From Candidatus Kaiserbacteria bacterium (GTDB lineage Bacteria; Patescibacteriota; Minisyncoccia; Phycocordibacterales; UBA2100): 64,000 nucleotides of DNA. Positions 3,315 through 57,812 of the stretch are shown piece by piece. The notes under the pieces are model-generated. The model made no database searches, was not told the origin of the DNA, and worked only from the letters and a program-made list of their open reading frames with translations. The stretch lies in assembly GCA_016186765.1 (NCBI GenBank), contig JACPLD010000001.1, positions 133,647 to 197,646 on the forward strand, given 5' to 3'. The stretch's first letter is position 1, and each line of letters opens with the position of its first letter. Position numbers and translations under genes: made by a program.

Positions 3315-5054
3315 CTACTTAACCAGTACTGATGCACTGCTCTCGAGGAGCGTACCCCCAGTGGCGCTACACTGCAAGGTAAATTTCCACGTTCCGGGAG
3401 TCGATGTCGCAGAGACTACGAGAGTCCTCGAGCCCTCATTGCTTCGCGCAAAGAGCGCATTGGCTCCTCCGCTCTCGACATACACACGGCAGGGATCCTG
3501 TGCTCTCACGCCGACACTCGACCACGAGACGACAAGTGGGTTCCCGCGCAAAACCTCTTTTGGCTGAACAACGATTAGGGCGGCAGGAGCGACCTCCGCA
3601 GCCTGCGAGGCCCTCCGCAATGCCTCTCGCAACTGCTCCGCGGCGGAGGAGGTCGCAAGCGGGGTCGGAGCAATGTGGCTGACCGGTCGGAGTTCATACT
3701 GTCCGGTCGCAGGATTGTAGACATATTGAGACTGCGGCTGCTGCGCAGACTGCGGAGCAATAGCCGGGTACCCTGCGCCGGAAGAAGGTACTCCACTTGT
3801 GGGAACACCGCCTCCAGAAGGTCCGTATCCAGCCGAAGCTCCAGAAGCAAACGGATTAGCGTTCGCAAACGGACTTCCCCCACCTCGTATGGCATAGTCT
3901 TTCGCATCGTAGTTGAAATTTGGATCGCCAAAAAGTCGGGCGAATTGTGCAGCATAGCTTCCGACGGTCGTCCCAAAGGCATCAGCCCTCCCATACTTCC
4001 CAACCGATCCTGGACCCCCAAACCACGCTTGGGCGGCAGCCGTGTGGCTCCCAAATTGATTCACGTATTGGCCGAATTTGTGCCTAAACACGGCATCCTG
4101 CAGGGCTGGGTTGCGGAGGAACTGTTCCGGTGTCGCGCATTGGCCAATTTCGCACGTCCACCTCCAAATATTATCTCCTCTGACCTGGTACGCGCCGTAG
4201 ACACATACGTTTGTACAAGTTCTAATCCCATACCTACCGCCGCTCTCCATGTACCGTATGACTTGCGCGGCTCTGCACAATTCGTCGCAAACTTGTCCCG
4301 CTTCTCCCACCGGAGCCGCACCAAGCGTTACGTCTCCCAAGTACGTCCAGTCATCGGTCCTCTCATAGTTGATCCGTTCGTTATCCTCATCCGGCTGCAA
4401 GTATTTGACATCTCGCAGGTCTTCGTTCAAACCTAATTCCCCAGCCGCTGCCCTCGCCCCCTCTCGGTCTCCGTCGATAATTTTTAATGCCAAATCTTTT
4501 GCTAGATCCGGATTTTCATTTACGTCTGCGCTGGTAATGTCAGATACGCCCATCTCTTGAAGCGCCTGTGCGAGCGCTTCCCGATCTGCGCTGGTCGTAA
4601 GATCAAGATTTCCAACCTGTTCGCGGGCAGTTGCACGATCGCTCAAATCAATGGGGGTGCGCAAGCATGATGAGATCTTCTTTTCGTAGTTCGGGTCGCA
4701 TTTCGAGATCGTGCAAGACTTTTTGACATCAACATAAAACGTAACATCCCCACAGCGAGTGGTTGGACAGCTGTCAACTTTACATGCATCCTCTCCGGCT
4801 CTCCGTGTGCTTCCAGTTGGAGTAATGGTGAAAGTTCCCTGCTCTGCGTCGAGTTTTATAGACTCGTGAACACATCGGTCGTTGGAACTCTTTATCGGCC
4901 CCTTGATATCCTCAAGCTTAGTGGCCGGCAGCTCCTTGTCCGCCGGACATTTAACGGATCCATCCTTGTAGGAGGTTGACTCTCCAACAGCTCCGACTAC
5001 AACAGGAATCAGCAACAGTGCGCCAAAGAGAAAAAAAGCGCGAATACGCATCAC
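3315..5054 (-). CDS. secreted multidomain protein: signal peptide, Cys-rich N-terminal region, putative lysozyme/lytic-transglycosylase-like core, C-terminal ~90-aa domain shared with the next gene
   Basis: 579 aa; MMRIRAFFLFGALLLIPVVVGA signal peptide; YMESGGRYGIRTCTNVCVYGAYQV resembles the ES...GLMQ catalytic motif of SLT domains (weak); C-terminal VVQPKEVLRGNPLVVSWSSVG...CRVYV...TPGTWKFTLQC is paralogous to the C-terminus of 5114..6478. Confidence 0.55.
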   Translation of the reverse strand: MMRIRAFFLFGALLLIPVVVGAVGESTSYKDGSVKCPADKELPATKLEDIKGPIKSSNDRCVHESIKLDAEQGTFTITPTGSTRRAGEDACKVDSCPTTRCGDVTFYVDVKKSCTISKCDPNYEKKISSCLRTPIDLSDRATAREQVGNLDLTTSADREALAQALQEMGVSDITSADVNENPDLAKDLALKIIDGDREGARAAAGELGLNEDLRDVKYLQPDEDNERINYERTDDWTYLGDVTLGAAPVGEAGQVCDELCRAAQVIRYMESGGRYGIRTCTNVCVYGAYQVRGDNIWRWTCEIGQCATPEQFLRNPALQDAVFRHKFGQYVNQFGSHTAAAQAWFGGPGSVGKYGRADAFGTTVGSYAAQFARLFGDPNFNYDAKDYAIRGGGSPFANANPFASGASAGYGPSGGGVPTSGVPSSGAGYPAIAPQSAQQPQSQYVYNPATGQYELRPVSHIAPTPLATSSAAEQLREALRRASQAAEVAPAALIVVQPKEVLRGNPLVVSWSSVGVRAQDPCRVYVESGGANALFARSNEGSRTLVVSATSTPGTWKFTLQCSATGGTLLESSASVLVK

Positions 5055-25923: not shown

Positions 25924-27582
25924 ATGCTCCGGGTTTTTAGAACAGCAGATACGGAGACTCTCAATGAAATAGCTGAAGAGACGCGCGTGCGGAAAGTCCC
26001 CACGTACGTGATGCTTTTTTCTATGGGTTCGCAGTTCGACCATCTCATCGTGCGAGAGCTCGCAAAGCTCGGGGCATTTTGCGTTGTCGCTGATCCTTCG
26101 ACCGTTACCGCCGACGACGTGAAAAAGGTGGCGCCAGCGGGAATCATCCTCTCGGGAGGTCCTGCATCGGTAGAAACAGAGCCTCCGCCGTTTGATGAGA
26201 AAATCTTCGATCTCGGGATCCCGACACTCGGCATTTGCCTCGGATTTCAAATGTGGGCGAAGCATGTGGGTGCAAAGGTCCCGCCTTCTGAAAAACGCGA
26301 GTTTGGCGTCCACACGTTCACGATTAGCGCGGATGATCCGCTTTTTGCAGGCATTCCTCGCGAGACACAGGTACTCCATAGTCATGGCGATGCCGTGCTT
26401 CCAGATTCTGTCATTACAGTTCTCGGCACTACCGACAATGCACCCGTTGCGGCCGGGAGATTCAAGCATCTATGGGGGGTGCAGTTCCACCCCGAGGTGA
26501 CCGAAACAGTCGAGGGAGCACACATCTATGATAATTTCCTCACGATCTGCGGCATTAGCGAGCGCTTCCCTGCGCACAATGTGGCGGAGCAAAAGATAGC
26601 TGAACTGAAAAAACTCGTCGGCCCCTCGACTCCGCTCGGGGTAAACAAAAAAGTGCTCATCGCGCTGTCGGGCGGTTCGGATTCTTCGGTCGTTGCATTT
26701 CTTCTAAAGCGCGCTTTAGAAGAAATGCCCCGAGCAAAGTCGAGGGGCCAACCCTTCGACTCCGCTCAGGGTAAACTCCGAGGAGTTTACATCCGCGGCA
26801 TCGATCGTCCCGACGACGAGGCATACGTGAGAACATATTTCGGCAAGGAAGATTGGATTGAGCTCGAGATTGCTGATGCAACGGCGCTTTTTCTCGATGC
26901 ATTGCGTGGAAAGACTGCAATGCGCGAGAAACGGCTGGCAATGCAGAGCGTGTATCGCGACGTGCTCGAAGAGAAGATAAAAGAGTTTGGAGCGGATTTC
27001 ATCGCACAAGGCACACTCTATACCGACCTCCGAGAAAGCGGCCTTGGGACAGCCACCGGTGCGCGTGTCGCCGAGATAAAGGTGCACCACAATGTCGGCA
27101 TCACCTTCTCTGTTCCCGAACTTCGCCCTCTCGAGGATCAGGTGAAAGACTCGGCGAGAAATATCGGACGCGAGATCGGCGTGCCCGAAGACCTTGTCCT
27201 CCGACATCCCTTCCCCGGTCCTGGCCTCGTCGTTCGCATCGAAGGAGAGGTCACCGCCGAAAAACTTGCCGCCGCGCGCGCGGTGGATGGCATCTACATC
27301 GAAGAACTTCGCAAGGCCAACCTCTACTCGACCGTGTGGCAAGCAGGCGCTGTCGTCACGAGTTCAGAGCATACTGTTTCCAAGGGAGACGACGCCGGCA
27401 TGGGACACGTTGTCGCGCTGTGGGCAGTATGGAGCGTGAATGGCTTTACCGCACGCTTTGCGCAGCTACCGTACGATTTTCTGGGCAAAGTCTCCCGCCG
27501 CATCACCAATGAAATCCGCGAGGTCGGCGCTGTCACCTATCGCATCTCCAACAAACCTCCTGCTACGATAGAATGGGGTTAA
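25924..27582 (+). CDS. guaA: GMP synthase (glutamine-hydrolysing), carrying in-frame repeat-element insertions
   Basis: 552 aa; GATase domain (GICLGFQMW), PP-loop SGGSDSS, C-terminal dimerisation domain ending PATIEWG. Start may be the internal MLFSMGSQ. Extra segments PSTPLGVNK and EEMPRAKSRGQPFDSAQGKL are encoded by GC-rich repeat copies. Confidence 0.9.
   Translation: MLRVFRTADTETLNEIAEETRVRKVPTYVMLFSMGSQFDHLIVRELAKLGAFCVVADPSTVTADDVKKVAPAGIILSGGPASVETEPPPFDEKIFDLGIPTLGICLGFQMWAKHVGAKVPPSEKREFGVHTFTISADDPLFAGIPRETQVLHSHGDAVLPDSVITVLGTTDNAPVAAGRFKHLWGVQFHPEVTETVEGAHIYDNFLTICGISERFPAHNVAEQKIAELKKLVGPSTPLGVNKKVLIALSGGSDSSVVAFLLKRALEEMPRAKSRGQPFDSAQGKLRGVYIRGIDRPDDEAYVRTYFGKEDWIELEIADATALFLDALRGKTAMREKRLAMQSVYRDVLEEKIKEFGADFIAQGTLYTDLRESGLGTATGARVAEIKVHHNVGITFSVPELRPLEDQVKDSARNIGREIGVPEDLVLRHPFPGPGLVVRIEGEVTAEKLAAARAVDGIYIEELRKANLYSTVWQAGAVVTSSEHTVSKGDDAGMGHVVALWAVWSVNGFTARFAQLPYDFLGKVSRRITNEIREVGAVTYRISNKPPATIEWG
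26622..26790. repeat. cluster of three copies (+, -, +) of a ~25-bp GC-rich repeat element plus an 8-bp-stem palindrome, all in-frame inside guaA
   Basis: cccctcgactccgctcggggtaaac (26622..26646); ccccgagcaaagtcgagggg (26728..26747, reverse complement with 2 mismatches); cccttcgactccgctcagggtaaac (26752..26776); gtaaactccgaggagtttac palindrome (26771..26790). Confidence 0.8.
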
Positions 27583-27591
27583 TTACCGAGC

Positions 27592-28560
27592 ATGAGTGAT
27601 ATAGACCGAGATTTCGGGAAGCCAGAATCTTACTCCGAACGGCAGCGGATGAACTTTTCTGACGCTCTGCTCTCAAAGCCGTTCGAAAGTGGAGACGCCG
27701 CTCTCGATAAGGTATTTTGCCTCGGCAAAGTGTCTAAAGAGGGACATGTGTGGACCGTATCGGTGGATTCGGGATCACCAACGGTAGCATTGAACCAAAA
27801 GGTTAAAGAGCAACTCGCACTCGCCGATTCCCCCACCGTCGCGGACGTGCGAGCAAGAGCTGTGTATCCTGAACTATCTCTCATATCTGGCGGTTCATTT
27901 GTCTGGCTCCATGACCATAAGGGCGAACGGCTCGTTTGTCTCAGGCGAGACGAAGCGGCTCCCGTGGACGCCGGATACCTGACGTGTCCGGCGGGAAGAT
28001 CGGGAGAGCCGCTCACGCAAACGATCGTCGGGGAAACGAACGAGGAGCTCATTATCATAAAGACGCTGCGAGACGGCCAGGAGCGATTCAAGCTACTCGG
28101 CTTTTTCAGAGACGAGAACACGAAAGATAAGATCGTGCAGCAGCGTCTCGCGCAGGTCAAAAGGATCCACGACAACTTAAAACAGCGCGGGCGCGAGAGC
28201 GATGCGGAGCTTCTTCTCAAGATCCGCGGGGAGGACGACGTTGAGATGCTTCAGATTGAAGGATATCTCGACAGCAATCCGAATGGTGAGGAAGTCGTGA
28301 CGCTTGTACGCAGCCGGGAAATCGACCGAGTGCAAAATAGCATTGTACTGTTCGATAAAGCTAACAACACGCTTGAGGTCAATCAGGCGCTGCGCGTTAG
28401 ATTACCGGAAGACGCAGAAATCCAAACCGTTATAGACGGAGAAGTATTCGGACGAAAAATCGAAATGTTTTCATCTCTTTCAGCGCTCACAAACGAGAAA
28501 CTTGTCCCCGCTTTGCAGAACTACCGCAATCGTCTGCTAGCTCAAGACAGAGAAACCTAG
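27592..28560 (+). CDS. hypothetical protein (possible cargo of an insertion into the guaA 3' end)
   Basis: 322-aa ORF with coding-like codon usage and no recognisable motif. Flanked by the guaA terminus and a degenerate copy of that terminus (28593..28634). Confidence 0.5.
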   Translation: MSDIDRDFGKPESYSERQRMNFSDALLSKPFESGDAALDKVFCLGKVSKEGHVWTVSVDSGSPTVALNQKVKEQLALADSPTVADVRARAVYPELSLISGGSFVWLHDHKGERLVCLRRDEAAPVDAGYLTCPAGRSGEPLTQTIVGETNEELIIIKTLRDGQERFKLLGFFRDENTKDKIVQQRLAQVKRIHDNLKQRGRESDAELLLKIRGEDDVEMLQIEGYLDSNPNGEEVVTLVRSREIDRVQNSIVLFDKANNTLEVNQALRVRLPEDAEIQTVIDGEVFGRKIEMFSSLSALTNEKLVPALQNYRNRLLAQDRET

Positions 28561-28592
28561 ATCCTTCTCCGGCGCGTTTCGTCCACATCTCC

Positions 28593-28634
28593 CGTCCATC
28601 TCGGACAAACCTCCCGCGACGATCGAGTGGGGTT
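28593..28634 (+). repeat. degenerate direct duplicate of the guaA 3' terminus (putative attR-like scar)
   Basis: catctcggacaaacctcccgcgacgatcgagtggggttga versus the guaA end catctccaacaaacctcctgctacgatagaatggggttaa (about 80% identity). Both encode ...IS(D/N)KPPATIEWG-stop, and the differences are mostly synonymous. Confidence 0.6.
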
Positions 28635-28639
28635 GAATC

Positions 28640-29498
28640 TTAGAAAACTGTTTTCGAAACAGCGCCCGTTGATTTGTCCACCTTCCATTGCTCCAAGGGA
28701 ATTGGTAACGTTCTTCCACTGCTTGAACCGCCCACATACAAGCGCACCTTCCAGAGCGATCCCGCGTCCTCTGCCTCCAACACGTAGCCCATCCCGCGCT
28801 CCAAAGCAGAATCTCGATAGAGCGCGAAATCCGGCAGGCGCTCGACGAGCGCTTTCGCCTCATCGGCACTCATGCGCGGAGCGCTCTCGTCGCGCTCGAC
28901 AATACGCTTGCTTCCCCCACCTCGCACCGAAAGGAGCGCGGCATCCACCGTGGGACCGAGCTCGTCGACGTGCGCGGCAAGAACCTCGGTTCGAAATGTT
29001 ACCTTGCTGCCTGCGGGGTCTAAAATACCGATCTCCTTGAACACGTATTGCCCCGAACTGTTATCGAACAATCCTGAAGCCACATAGCCGTTGTATTCGG
29101 CGCCGGCTTCCGGCGTGATCCATCCGAAGAAATCCAGGGAATAGTTCGGGCTGCCGGTAAAACCGAGTTCTGTCTCTTTTGCAACTGCTGCCCGCCCGGT
29201 GCGCTCCTGAAGCCGGGTCTCACGGTGCGAGGAGATCACGATCGTGGCGCGTCCCAGCGGCTCGCGTATCAGTTCGGATTCGTAGGAGCTGTCGCGCCGC
29301 ACTTCTCCTATAATCCAGTCCGCCGGATAGCGGAGCGTGTAGCCTGCATGCGAAACAAAGAGACGCTCGGCGGGAAGCGGCACATACGACAGTGCAATCG
29401 CAACAGCACCGAGAATGAGCACGGATACCGCAACCGCGACAATGAAGCGCACGTTTTTATATCGCACGATTCGCTTCAAGAAAGAGATATTCGCGGCC
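28640..29498 (-). CDS. membrane-anchored hypothetical protein with a PepSY-like C-terminus
   Basis: ORF track 28640..29584, but its first ~28 codons are the tRNA-Ala gene read as protein. Real start likely MAANISFLK. N-terminal TM (FIVAVAVSVLILGAVAIAL); C-terminal LWKVRLYVGG...WKVDKSTGAV is PepSY-like. Confidence 0.45.
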
Positions 29499-29499
29499 A

Positions 29500-29575
29500 T
29501 GGTGGACCATACCGGACTCGAACCGGTCACCTCATCCATGCCATGGATGCGCTCTGCCAGATGAGCTAATGGCCC
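29500..29575 (-). tRNA. tRNA-Ala (anticodon GGC)
   Basis: Manual fold of the reverse complement GGGCCATTAGCTCATCTGGCAGAGCGCATCCATGGCATGGATGAGGTGACCGGTTCGAGTCCGGTATGGTCCACCA: 7-bp acceptor with G3-U70, D and T arms, anticodon loop AUGGCAU, CCA encoded. Confidence 0.9.
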
Positions 29576-29604
29576 GTGCGGCACATCCTAGCAAAATTCA
29601 CCCG

Positions 29605-30072
29605 TCAGTACACCTGCAATTCGGAGGTATCACGCGAGGGCGGATTCGCCAGGCAGCGTTGCAGCTCGGGGGTTTCCGTCCAACCACACTTCCCGTCCGC
29701 TTGCGGTTCGCAGGAGGCTTCCTTGTAGCAGGCATACTCGGCACGGTATTCGCAAGTGGTAACGATACCCTCTGCTTCCTCTGCCGAAACACAAAGCTGT
29801 CCCGAGCAGCCTGCGACAGCGCACCCGTTAAAGGCAATCGAATCTGGAGGGAGTGTTTGACGCTCGTTTACAAAGGTGCGGCCGTCGGGAGTTGCGCAGC
29901 GCTCGGGATACGATTCCATAAGAGAGAAGCCTGCGGCGACGCACTCATCGAAATTGGTGATGAGGAAGAGAGATTGCTGTGCCCTGTTTTGCGAGAGCGC
30001 AACGAGAAGTCCTGCAATGATAGTGAGCACGACGACAATACCGATGAGCGTTGTTGTTGAGAGATTGGTCAT
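29605..30072 (-). CDS. hypothetical membrane-anchored Cys-rich secreted protein
   Basis: 155 aa; N-terminal TM (LIGIVVVLTIIAGLLVAL) then 10 Cys in the ectodomain. Confidence 0.5.
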   Translation of the reverse strand: MTNLSTTTLIGIVVVLTIIAGLLVALSQNRAQQSLFLITNFDECVAAGFSLMESYPERCATPDGRTFVNERQTLPPDSIAFNGCAVAGCSGQLCVSAEEAEGIVTTCEYRAEYACYKEASCEPQADGKCGWTETPELQRCLANPPSRDTSELQVY

Positions 30073-30144
30073 ATCCAGTTAGTACGACCAGTATACCAGA
30101 ACTTCCCCCGCAACTGTGGAAACTAGAGGGAACGGGGTGGTATT

Positions 30145-30657
30145 ATGGACATACGTTCCATGCAGATCGTCATTCGAAAAGCCGGGTGGAGGGACTTCGG
30201 CCCCCTTCTCAACTTGCAACGACAAGTCGTGCGTGAATCCGAGCACTTGGCCGCTACCCGCGGAGAGCGGAAGGAACCAGTCCTCTTTGCGTTTGCAAAA
30301 GCGATCCTGCACCGCAAACGCGTGCACACGCTGCTTGCCCTTGCCGGAAATGAACCGGTCGGCTACATCACAGTCGTATTCGGGAAGTTCAGGAAAGTTG
30401 GCGAAACAGCCTACCTTGTCGTCGGGGTGCGCGCATCGCACCAAGGGCAAGGTATCGGCACCACACTCCTCAATGAGGCAGAAAAATTCGCTCGTTCACG
30501 CAAAATGCACCGGATGGAGCTTGAGGTCTTCGAACGAAATGAAAGCGCCGTGCGACTCTACGAAAAACTCGGCTATCAGATCGAAGGCCGCCGCCGCGAA
30601 GCAGTAAAAACGCCGAACGGATACTCAGACATCATCTGGATGGGCAAACTCCTTTGA
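30145..30657 (+). CDS. GNAT family N-acetyltransferase
   Basis: 170 aa; acetyl-CoA binding motif A VGVRASHQGQGIGTTLL and motif B ...RLYEKLGY. Confidence 0.8.
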   Translation: MDIRSMQIVIRKAGWRDFGPLLNLQRQVVRESEHLAATRGERKEPVLFAFAKAILHRKRVHTLLALAGNEPVGYITVVFGKFRKVGETAYLVVGVRASHQGQGIGTTLLNEAEKFARSRKMHRMELEVFERNESAVRLYEKLGYQIEGRRREAVKTPNGYSDIIWMGKLL

Positions 30658-30676
30658 CTCAAATCCACTTATTTAT

Positions 30677-30748
30677 CCCCGCGGCAGGAATCGAACCCAC
30701 ATTACGAGCTCCGGAAGCTCGCGTCCTATCCGTTGAACGACGCGGGGC
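30677..30748 (-). tRNA. tRNA-Arg (anticodon CCG)
   Basis: Reverse complement CCCCGCGTCGTTCAACGGATAGGACGCGAGCTTCCGGAGCTCGTAATGTGGGTTCGATTCCTGCCGCGGGGA folds as a cloverleaf with anticodon loop UUCCGGA; CCA not encoded. Confidence 0.85.
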
Positions 30749-56582: not shown

Positions 56583-57812
56583 ATGAGAAAAACAACGGCT
56601 CTAACACTTGGCCTTCTCCTCCTCTTGAGTTTTTTGTTTTTCATGTCGCCGGTAGGGCGATACGTTGTCGGTACACCGTTTTCAGGCAACCCTGAACCCC
56701 CTCCACCGCCGCGCAGCGAGCAACTCTCCTTCGAGCTCGCAGAGGGATTTGCGGCACATCTTTTCGCAGAGAATGTCCCCGGGGCGCGCGTGATGCACCG
56801 TGATCCGAAAGGAACACTTCTTGTCTCCGAAACATCTCAAGGCAAGATCGTTGCGCTTCCAAACCTTGACAGCGATGGTAAGGCTGATCGCCTGATCACG
56901 GTGCTCGACGGCCTCAATAACCCGCATGGATTGCTAATGCTTTGCCCGGACACTGGAAACGTCAGCGCCGATCAGGATGTATGTCTACTTTATGTAGCGG
57001 AAACTCATCGAGTCGCAGCGTACGCTTATGATGCGGATACGTACTCGGCAACGTTCGAAAAAACGCTCATTAATCTTCCTGACGACGGTGGCCACTTCAC
57101 GCGTACCCTGATGCTTCATCCCGACAACAAGCGGATACTCGTATCCGTCGGCTCATCGTGCAATGTGTGCATGGAAAACGACGAGCGGCGCGCCACCGTC
57201 CTTGCGATCGATCTCGAAATAAAGAAGATGAGCGTTTTTGCGACAGGACTCCGCAACACAGTCTTTATGACCACCCACTACGTCACGGGAGACATTTGGG
57301 GTACCGACATGGGCCGCGATTACTTGGGAGACGACCTACCGCCGGATGAAATAAACATTATCCGCCCCTCGACTTCGCTCGGGGTAAACAACTATGGGTG
57401 GCCGTTCTGCTATGGGAAAGGCATCCGCGATTCGACGTTCCGCTCCGACAAGGAATTCGACTGCACGACGACGGACACATCGCACCTCGACATCCCCGCG
57501 CACTCCGCTCCTCTCGGTATTGCGTTCGTTCCCGAAGAAGGATGGCCGGAAGAGATGTGGTACGACGCCTTGGTCGCCTACCATGGTTCCTGGAACCGAA
57601 GCACTCCGACGGGCTATCGTGTAGTGCGCTTCCCGCTCGACGCGGAGGGCAATCCCGAAGGAGGACCGCAAGATTTTATGACCGGATTTATGAATGAACG
57701 CGGCACCGTCATCGGTCGCCCTGTTGATATTCTTCTCGAGCCAGGTGGTGTCATGTTCGTCTCCGACGACAAAGCTGGTGTAATCTACCGTATCGCAAGA
57801 ACGGGTGCGTAA
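56583..57812 (+). CDS. PQQ-dependent sugar (glucose/sorbosone) dehydrogenase-family beta-propeller protein, carrying an in-frame repeat-element copy
   Basis: ORF track 56526..57812; start taken at MRKTTALTLG (signal peptide). Typical motifs NPHGL, GLRNTVFM, DIWGTDMG, NNYGWPF, MFVSDDKAGVIYRI. Segment RPSTSLGV is encoded by the repeat element. Confidence 0.7.
   Translation: MRKTTALTLGLLLLLSFLFFMSPVGRYVVGTPFSGNPEPPPPPRSEQLSFELAEGFAAHLFAENVPGARVMHRDPKGTLLVSETSQGKIVALPNLDSDGKADRLITVLDGLNNPHGLLMLCPDTGNVSADQDVCLLYVAETHRVAAYAYDADTYSATFEKTLINLPDDGGHFTRTLMLHPDNKRILVSVGSSCNVCMENDERRATVLAIDLEIKKMSVFATGLRNTVFMTTHYVTGDIWGTDMGRDYLGDDLPPDEINIIRPSTSLGVNNYGWPFCYGKGIRDSTFRSDKEFDCTTTDTSHLDIPAHSAPLGIAFVPEEGWPEEMWYDALVAYHGSWNRSTPTGYRVVRFPLDAEGNPEGGPQDFMTGFMNERGTVIGRPVDILLEPGGVMFVSDDKAGVIYRIARTGA
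57365..57389. repeat. copy of the GC-rich repeat element, in-frame inside the dehydrogenase gene
   Basis: cccctcgacttcgctcggggtaaac, 24/25 identical to the guaA copy at 26622..26646 and read in the same frame (PST(S/P)LGVN). Confidence 0.8.

Follow-up and report, generated by a model that had tools for sequence, protein, structure and literature searches.

We analyzed a stretch of 64,000 nucleotides from a Candidatus Kaiserbacteria bacterium (contig JACPLD010000001.1), hereafter the window, in which guaA, the gene for GMP synthase, is followed by a single gene of 322 codons (the cargo gene) and then by a second copy of the guaA 3' end. Coordinates below are window positions, and L and P numbers denote related loci and proteins, respectively. 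The locus has the following parts:

25924-27582, plus strand: guaA (GMP synthase, 552 aa), intact, with Pfam GATase and GMP_synt_C domains; its last 33 nt and stop codon form a terminus of imported type
27543-27582, plus strand: repeat copy 1, the working guaA terminus (..R ISNKPPATIEWG, TAA stop)
27583-27591, plus strand: spacer of 9 nt (TTACCGAGC) from the guaA stop to the cargo start codon, the left end of the insert; the alignment to empty sites ends at the guaA stop
27592-28560, plus strand: cargo gene, 322 aa, a divergent Nudix-superfamily protein in the same orientation as guaA
28561-28596, plus strand: trailing 36 nt of the insert, without similarity to the empty-site references; they hold CACATCTCC, which resembles the junction motif CGCATCTCC of guaA
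28597-28636, plus strand: repeat copy 2, the displaced native guaA terminus (ISDKPPATIEWG, TGA stop), a non-coding relic
28640-29494, minus strand: convergent membrane-protein gene, 284 aa, the native right flank outside the insert; orthologs lie directly after guaA in L010 (70%) and L011 (73%)
29500-30747: tRNA-Ala(GGC), Cys-rich protein, GNAT and tRNA-Arg(CCG), outside the insert, in conserved synteny (identical order in L010)

The top direct repeat of the region pairs 27543-27580 with 28597-28634, with 32 of 38 nt identical (84%) at a spacing of 1054, and both copies encode IS(N/D)KPPATIEWG followed by a stop. An earlier note, made from the sequence alone, had described a duplicated guaA 3' end of ca. 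80% identity with mostly synonymous differences, and this description holds. Over 39 in-frame nucleotides the copies differ at seven positions, six of them of synonymous type (five third positions and TAA/TGA) and one conservative (AAC Asn/GAC Asp). Apart from the shortness of the repeat, nothing speaks for a chance similarity or an assembly artefact, and both are refuted. The degenerate back-translation of KPPATIEWG matches the window twice, at the two copies, where zero matches are expected (100 shuffles), and the flank-to-flank local alignment of the cargo ORF scores above 200 of 200 shuffles and ranks 2nd among 503 control genes. Moreover, the arrangement was found in nine independent Logan assemblies and in the NCBI metagenome-assembled genome of Candidatus Kaiserbacteria, and is therefore no artefact of assembly; two assemblies of a second lineage (see below) have it as well. 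A seeming extension of the repeat to ca. 130 nt (27454-27471 versus 28509-28526, “RFAELP” in another frame) was discarded as chance, the DNA coding there for the conserved VPALQNY C-terminus of the cargo family. The copy 2 relic had no Rfam match, a fold z-score of -0.24 and no terminator-like site, and the composition of the insert is not diagnostic (GC 0.50-0.57 versus 0.55-0.60 in the flanks).

A scan of GTDB species representatives provided 78 related guaA loci for comparison. The closest relatives, L010 and L011 (GuaA 83% identical in amino acids, guaA 83-84% in nucleotides), have an unoccupied, attB-like site, in which guaA is followed by a gap of 3 nt and then by the stop codon of the ortholog (70-73%) of the convergent membrane-protein gene. 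The left flank of the window aligns to these empty sites up to the guaA stop, and the right flank from CATCTC (28597) on, through the identical 3-nt gap and into the membrane-protein gene; the 1,014 nt between the flanks have no match in the empty-site references. The event is a genuine insertion of ca. 1 kb within the last 12 codons of guaA, whose 3' terminus was replaced by an imported one. Copy 2 is the displaced native terminus, since it is collinear with the guaA end of the relatives and keeps the identical 3-nt gap to the convergent stop. Of its last 39 nt, all but two agree with the guaA end of L011 (95% identity). Copy 1 stands out from the guaA ends of the closest relatives by five differences (87%), all of them GC-to-AT (GAC>AAC, a unique Asp-to-Asn change, CCC>CCT, GCG>GCT, GAG>GAA and TGA>TAA), and most likely came in with the insert. 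These comparisons bear out what the earlier note had suggested, namely, an insertion at this place, a second copy that once terminated guaA and a replacement 3' end carried by the insert, with copy 1 behaving as imported and its divergence synonymous in type. They also supply the unoccupied relatives the note had looked to, since L010 and L011 are empty and ca. 70 species representatives lack the cargo gene. Within the population of the window itself no empty-site allele was found, every contig with an identical membrane protein being occupied.

The differences between the two ends are informative about their history. A synonymous bias of six in seven has a probability of 0.0007-0.002 under random substitution, and the non-coding relic has none of the changes at first and second codon positions that are expected from the decay of an identical duplicate. 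Decay in situ of an identical duplicate is therefore rejected. A special synonymous constraint on the guaA terminus was considered and dismissed, as codon identity there (0.49 across 70 relatives) is about that of the rest of the gene, so that constraint does not explain the pattern. It follows that each copy was the end of a working guaA in a genome of its own while they diverged, which makes the two ends xenologous, and that their joining is recent enough for the relic to be still pristine. The last 360 nt of guaA (27222-27582) are mosaic as well. The segment from -120 to -79 before the stop has only 62-64% identity to L011 and L010 and 88% to L013 and L028, and the following 39 nt are 97% identical to L010, a pattern of similarity that suggests short-patch recombination among Kaiserbacteria.

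The cargo protein has no Pfam match at E ≤ 0.1, and none in NCBIfam or PADLOC. The family is rare: twelve clusters of homologs were found, and the full profile search retrieved no more than 213 among 1.84 billion proteins. It has the Nudix alpha/beta/alpha fold. The acidic residues of the Nudix helix are kept across the family (E148 and E152 invariant, E151 nearly so), E139 is invariant as well, the distant members P0200, P0217 and P0231 pass the PF00293 gathering score of 21.1 (21.3-21.5 bits), and a sequence-level search of solved structures with the cargo protein gave a single match, sub-threshold, to a Nudix protein (1nqy, E 2.5). Compared with the Nudix hydrolase superfamily (PF00293, e.g., ADP-ribose, Ap4A or NDP-sugar pyrophosphatases), the protein stands apart in having no sequence-level Pfam match, in an Arg and a Gly of the box that are not conserved, and in extra N- and C-terminal domains that double its size. 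Read by eye against the motif GX5EX7REUXEEXGU, the family has a variable Arg position and no final Gly. Some of the distant relatives are fused to HAD phosphatases or to nucleoside 2-deoxyribosyltransferase. Elsewhere, homologs have nucleotide or sugar-nucleotide genes as neighbors, among them phosphomannomutase, HAD phosphatases, NTP-transferases, glycosyltransferases, tadA-like and dCMP-type deaminases, dCTP deaminase/dUTPase, thymidylate kinase and a YfbR-like nucleotidase. Judging from a ratio of nonsynonymous to synonymous substitution rates (dN/dS) of 0.11 against an ortholog 78% identical, the cargo is an intact working gene under purifying selection; it is predicted to be a nucleotide or nucleotide-sugar pyrophosphatase, for which a place behind guaA would make sense, and is probably read through from guaA across the 9-nt gap. 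The product is no mobility protein. A role as a defence or phage gene was also discarded, there being no PADLOC or NCBIfam match and no relatives in viral contigs.

Other Kaiserbacteria have different genes at the same place. In L025 (6566-8310), guaA is followed by two membrane-protein genes (a DUF2157 protein and a 187-aa protein) and then by a degraded relic of ca. 55 nt, which has the AGT Ser codon of the empty-site relative L081 in place of the TCC of the working end. L062 (7593-9190) has this pair of genes behind guaA, too. In L045 (5655-7246), three small minus-strand ORFs come behind guaA, and after them a relic of 102 nt in which the Arg codon families are swapped with respect to the working end. 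Across Kaiserbacteria the guaA-end relics vary in length (ca. 34, 38, 55 and 102 nt), and across the family the post-guaA region is hypervariable, with 186 clusters among 251 ORFs. The different cargoes, together with relics in other Ser or Arg codon families, mark the guaA terminus as a recurrent landing site in Kaiserbacteria.

The guaA 3' end is indeed a documented integration target, as the earlier note had said, being the att site of GIsul2 (PMC9376610), Tn5801 (PMC4844618) and further elements (PMC4701971). The core att of GIsul2, GAGTGGGA, lies within the ..IEWE codons of guaA (PMC9376610), and Tn5801 has 11-bp repeats at guaA (PMC4844618). Our insert shares with these islands and integrative and conjugative elements of Proteobacteria and Firmicutes the target (the last guaA codons), the flanking direct repeats, the preserved function of the gene and the empty sites in relatives (PMC9376610, PMC4844618). 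However, those elements have 15-25 kb, an integrase next to guaA and att repeats of 11-19 bp, whereas here we have 1,014 bp, one metabolic gene and a repeat of 38-40 nt. No recombinase is encoded in the insert, in which the Nudix-like gene is the sole ORF and the remainder 9 + 36 non-coding nt. A crude regular expression for Tyr or Ser recombinase motifs had no match in the window or in loci L001-L116 (among them the 78 related guaA loci), and no recombinase appeared among the 25 top Pfam families listed for 150 ORFs downstream of guaA, which is weak negative evidence. Nor is the insert a transposon or insertion sequence, since it has no transposase, no inverted repeat brackets it and the direct repeats range from 20 to 38 nt depending on the locus.

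How the segment came to be there can be explained in several ways. The earlier note had taken it for the decayed islet of an integrase-bearing element, that is, a Tyr or Ser recombinase island that integrated site-specifically at the guaA end and then shrank to one gene between attL and attR. This would account for the attL/attR-like architecture with an imported gene end, for the left switch from native to imported sequence falling exactly at the relic start, and for the use of the same guaA codons as GIsul2, Tn5801 and the other elements. The remnant would then resemble the cis-mobilizable elements (CIMEs) of the ICESt1/ICESt3 literature, which are recombinase-less, attL/attR-flanked and mobilized in trans. 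The definition of a CIME requires a cognate integrase-bearing element with the same att site. The insert has the repeats and lacks the recombination module, like a CIME, but no such cognate element was seen within ca. 6 kb of guaA in the 78 related genomes or in the 64-kb window. Neither recombinase nor element debris is left in the insert, the motif scan of L001-L116 and the top Pfam families of the 150 downstream ORFs showed no recombinase, and the insertions of L025 and L045 likewise have no recombinases and differ in relic length. Besides, an identical unit of guaA end, one ORF and relic is found in a divergent lineage (L095/L096), so that decay would have to have been complete before the cassette spread. 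We regard this origin as unlikely, and an integrase island is not supported as the source of the insert. In L095 and L096, an ortholog of the cargo (P0002) occupies the identical site after guaA and is followed by a second guaA end, which in L096 is a perfect 34-nt repeat of its own terminus. Their guaA is more distant from that of the window (73% over 327 nt) than is the guaA of the empty-site relatives (83-84%), and in the same pair of genomes the proportion of synonymous differences (pS) is lower in the cargo (0.65) than in the adjacent guaA (0.79). The presence of the same unit in a more distant lineage, with a lower cargo pS, implies that the one-gene unit was gained, transferred or precisely lost more than once. 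A single ancient insertion in the common ancestor of the window and L095, with the empty sites of L010, L011 and others produced by later precise deletions between the repeats, would fit the sharing of cargo and boundaries by two lineages and the synonymous divergence (dS) of the cargo (1.48), higher than that of guaA between the window and L011 (0.71); deletion between repeats of 34-40 nt would, in addition, restore a clean site. However, a long neutral residence is incompatible with the relic of the window, in which at most two of 39 nt have changed and the encoded terminus is still perfect, the ca. 70 species representatives without the gene would demand many independent precise losses, and the lower pS of the cargo hints that it is younger than the split of its hosts. 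An ancient insertion is, thus, very unlikely.

A different possibility is that the Nudix-family gene itself is an undescribed mobile cassette, without integrase, that targets the 3' ends of nucleotide-metabolism genes, 20-38 bp of which are duplicated on insertion. The family is in fact enriched for flanking direct repeats: a score of at least 19 is reached by 3 of 16 cargo-family genes and by 1 of 487 others (Fisher P = 1e-4), and this one, in L034, lies between two paralogous tRNAs, a trivial tRNA pair. That gene (L034, 11021-12110; 294 aa) has a homing-endonuclease-associated repeat (PF18780) and sits between tRNA-Pro CGG and GGG, in a tRNA cluster downstream of prs. Besides the 34/34-nt repeat of L096, a 21/22-nt repeat (2974-2995 and 3998-4019) brackets a bare ORF homologous to the cargo in the Shapirobacteria-like L114, where it covers the final five codons and the stop of a gene for a tadA-like nucleoside deaminase, plus 5 nt, and a perfect 20/20-nt repeat (524-543 and 1590-1609) brackets the homolog in L090. 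Upstream of the cassette, L090 also repeats the beginning of the glycosyltransferase gene that lies downstream (ATATGGATTT[A/G]TC; 455-467 versus 1610-1622), the two repeats not being collinear. Close relatives differ in where the homolog lies with respect to tadA, downstream in L114 and immediately upstream in L104, L107, L108 and L111. No clean empty site was found for the tadA insertion of L114, the closest relative, L111, having a different downstream gene, and the flanking repeats of L097 (22/28 nt) and L092 (12 nt) were set aside as not above background. Against a self-moving cassette, the repeats differ in length and that of the window was not identical at insertion, the protein is an enzyme of Nudix fold that has metabolic neighbors and HAD fusions and no nuclease or recombinase domain, most family loci have no repeats, guaA-end relics also flank unrelated cargo, and no copies were found in viral contigs. 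We consider such a cassette very unlikely. The more general conjecture that the 322-aa Nudix genes of Patescibacteria are mobile cassettes of a single gene, free of recombinases, that settle at the 3' ends of genes of nucleotide metabolism (guaA, tadA-like), where they duplicate or replace 20-38 bp, and that the guaA terminus of Kaiserbacteria may be a general landing pad for accessory genes independent of integrases, is quite doubtful, though slightly less so.

The explanation that we prefer, with a probability of roughly 65% for the whole, is the capture of a foreign segment of ca. 1.05 kb at the guaA terminus, most likely joined by short homology without an integrase. The segment would have joined the resident guaA by recombination at ...CGC ATC TC|C (about 27548-27550) or directly beside it, bringing the last ca. 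11 codons and stop of guaA from another Kaiserbacteria lineage, the 9-nt spacer, the 322-codon Nudix gene and the 36 nt behind it. In such an event guaA would remain functional, ending now in the imported terminus, and the resident terminus would be pushed 1,054 bp downstream, still abutting the convergent membrane-protein gene as in the relatives. The donor would be a relative that already had this gene after guaA, and no integrase encoded by the element would be needed. Recombination could have been of the short-homology or illegitimate kind, with the conserved guaA terminus as its anchor (homology-facilitated, after natural transformation), or a small circle could have integrated by a Campbell-type crossover. 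Homology-facilitated illegitimate recombination in natural transformation was reportedly described by de Vries & Wackernagel (2002) and Prudhomme et al. (2002). The likeness lies in the entry of foreign DNA through one conserved anchor gene, with no need for a mobility gene, and in a donor-type gene end accompanied by a recipient leftover of variable length (relics of 34 to ca. 102 nt in Kaiserbacteria). Donor-type sequence at the anchor gene and the recipient leftover are both present, in the divergence of copies 1 and 2 and in the codon-family switches of L025 and L045. CATCTC and CACATCTCC at the right junction may represent a microhomology; upstream of 27549 there is no clear donor tract, though the guaA 3' region is mosaic. 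We favor capture without an integrase because no recombinase was found, the relic lengths vary, the two ends are xenologous and natural competence has been demonstrated in the candidate phyla radiation (CPR), specifically in Saccharibacteria (PMC10633639, PMC10187176). The term homology-facilitated illegitimate recombination appears in PMC6382021.

Several observations weigh against this integrase-free capture. No donor-type genome, with the gene after guaA and no relic, was found, and both occupied lineages known have relics. The perfect 34-nt repeat of L096 is not what capture from a divergent donor would leave; it suggests that the target was duplicated, that a site-specific or Campbell integration took place within the species, or that gene conversion occurred. 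On the left, native sequence gives way to imported sequence where the relic begins, as expected from a site-specific or Campbell crossover and not from one-ended homologous capture; after homology-facilitated illegitimate recombination, donor sequence would be expected to reach further upstream in guaA. Uninterrupted identity between the copies extends over ca. 10 nt at most, short for RecA, and the polarity of the differences between them rests on ca. 40 nt. The recombinase search was crude and reached ca. 6 kb beyond guaA in the relatives and 64 kb of this genome. The position of the switch, the L096 repeat and the 10-nt identity fit a site-specific or Campbell-type crossover, possibly catalyzed in trans, and a site-specific recombinase acting in trans at the joining step is the main alternative to integrase-free capture.

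Insertion at the guaA end is a known signature of integrase-bearing islands; here it is seen in the reduced genome of a CPR bacterium, where the insert brings one metabolic gene and no recombinase was found, which is the main peculiarity of an otherwise rather ordinary scar. If joining without an integrase is true, it would be a route by which ultra-small, probably naturally competent bacteria gain accessory genes, with conserved gene termini serving as recombination anchors and leaving datable relics behind. The rare, uncharacterized Nudix family, with its HAD and deoxyribosyltransferase fusions and nucleotide-salvage neighbors, may in turn matter for nucleotide scavenging in the CPR.

Downstream of the insert, the order membrane protein, tRNA-Ala(GGC), Cys-rich protein, GNAT, tRNA-Arg(CCG) and prs is kept in L010 and largely in L019 and L034. 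The run up to tRNA-Arg(CCG), which the earlier note had included in the variable region, is thus conserved synteny outside the insert, and its label “PepSY-like” for the membrane protein was not confirmed, this protein having no Pfam match. Public gene calls make the membrane protein 299 aa long (start at 29539), overlapping tRNA-Ala(GGC) at 29500-29575; the 284-aa version, with its start at 29494, avoids the overlap.

The guaA gene has internal repeats of its own. Between 26617 and 26776, a 25-nt direct repeat (26622-26646 and 26752-26776, 23/25 nt) brackets the segment of the PP-loop (SGGSDSS), which is also bracketed by an inverted repeat (26617-26641 and 26728-26752). These repeats encode in-frame inserts, “PSTPLG,” present in this genome alone, and “..SRGQPFDSAQGKLRG,” which varies in length and sequence among relatives (SPFDSAQGQSGK in L012, none in L013 and L019). 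A looser copy of the motif is located at 57377. It looks like a small repetitive element tolerated in frame in an essential enzyme. In L083 (3898-5635), the guaA match comes in two pieces (residues 1-264 and 284-552), ca. 157 nt apart, at the variable loop in which the window has its repeat-derived insert. Finally, the Falkowbacteria locus L078 (5956-7941) has a guaA of 661 aa in which part of the C-terminal domain is duplicated in tandem and in frame, the first copy ending in ..VVYRI, the codon position of the repeat boundary in the window.

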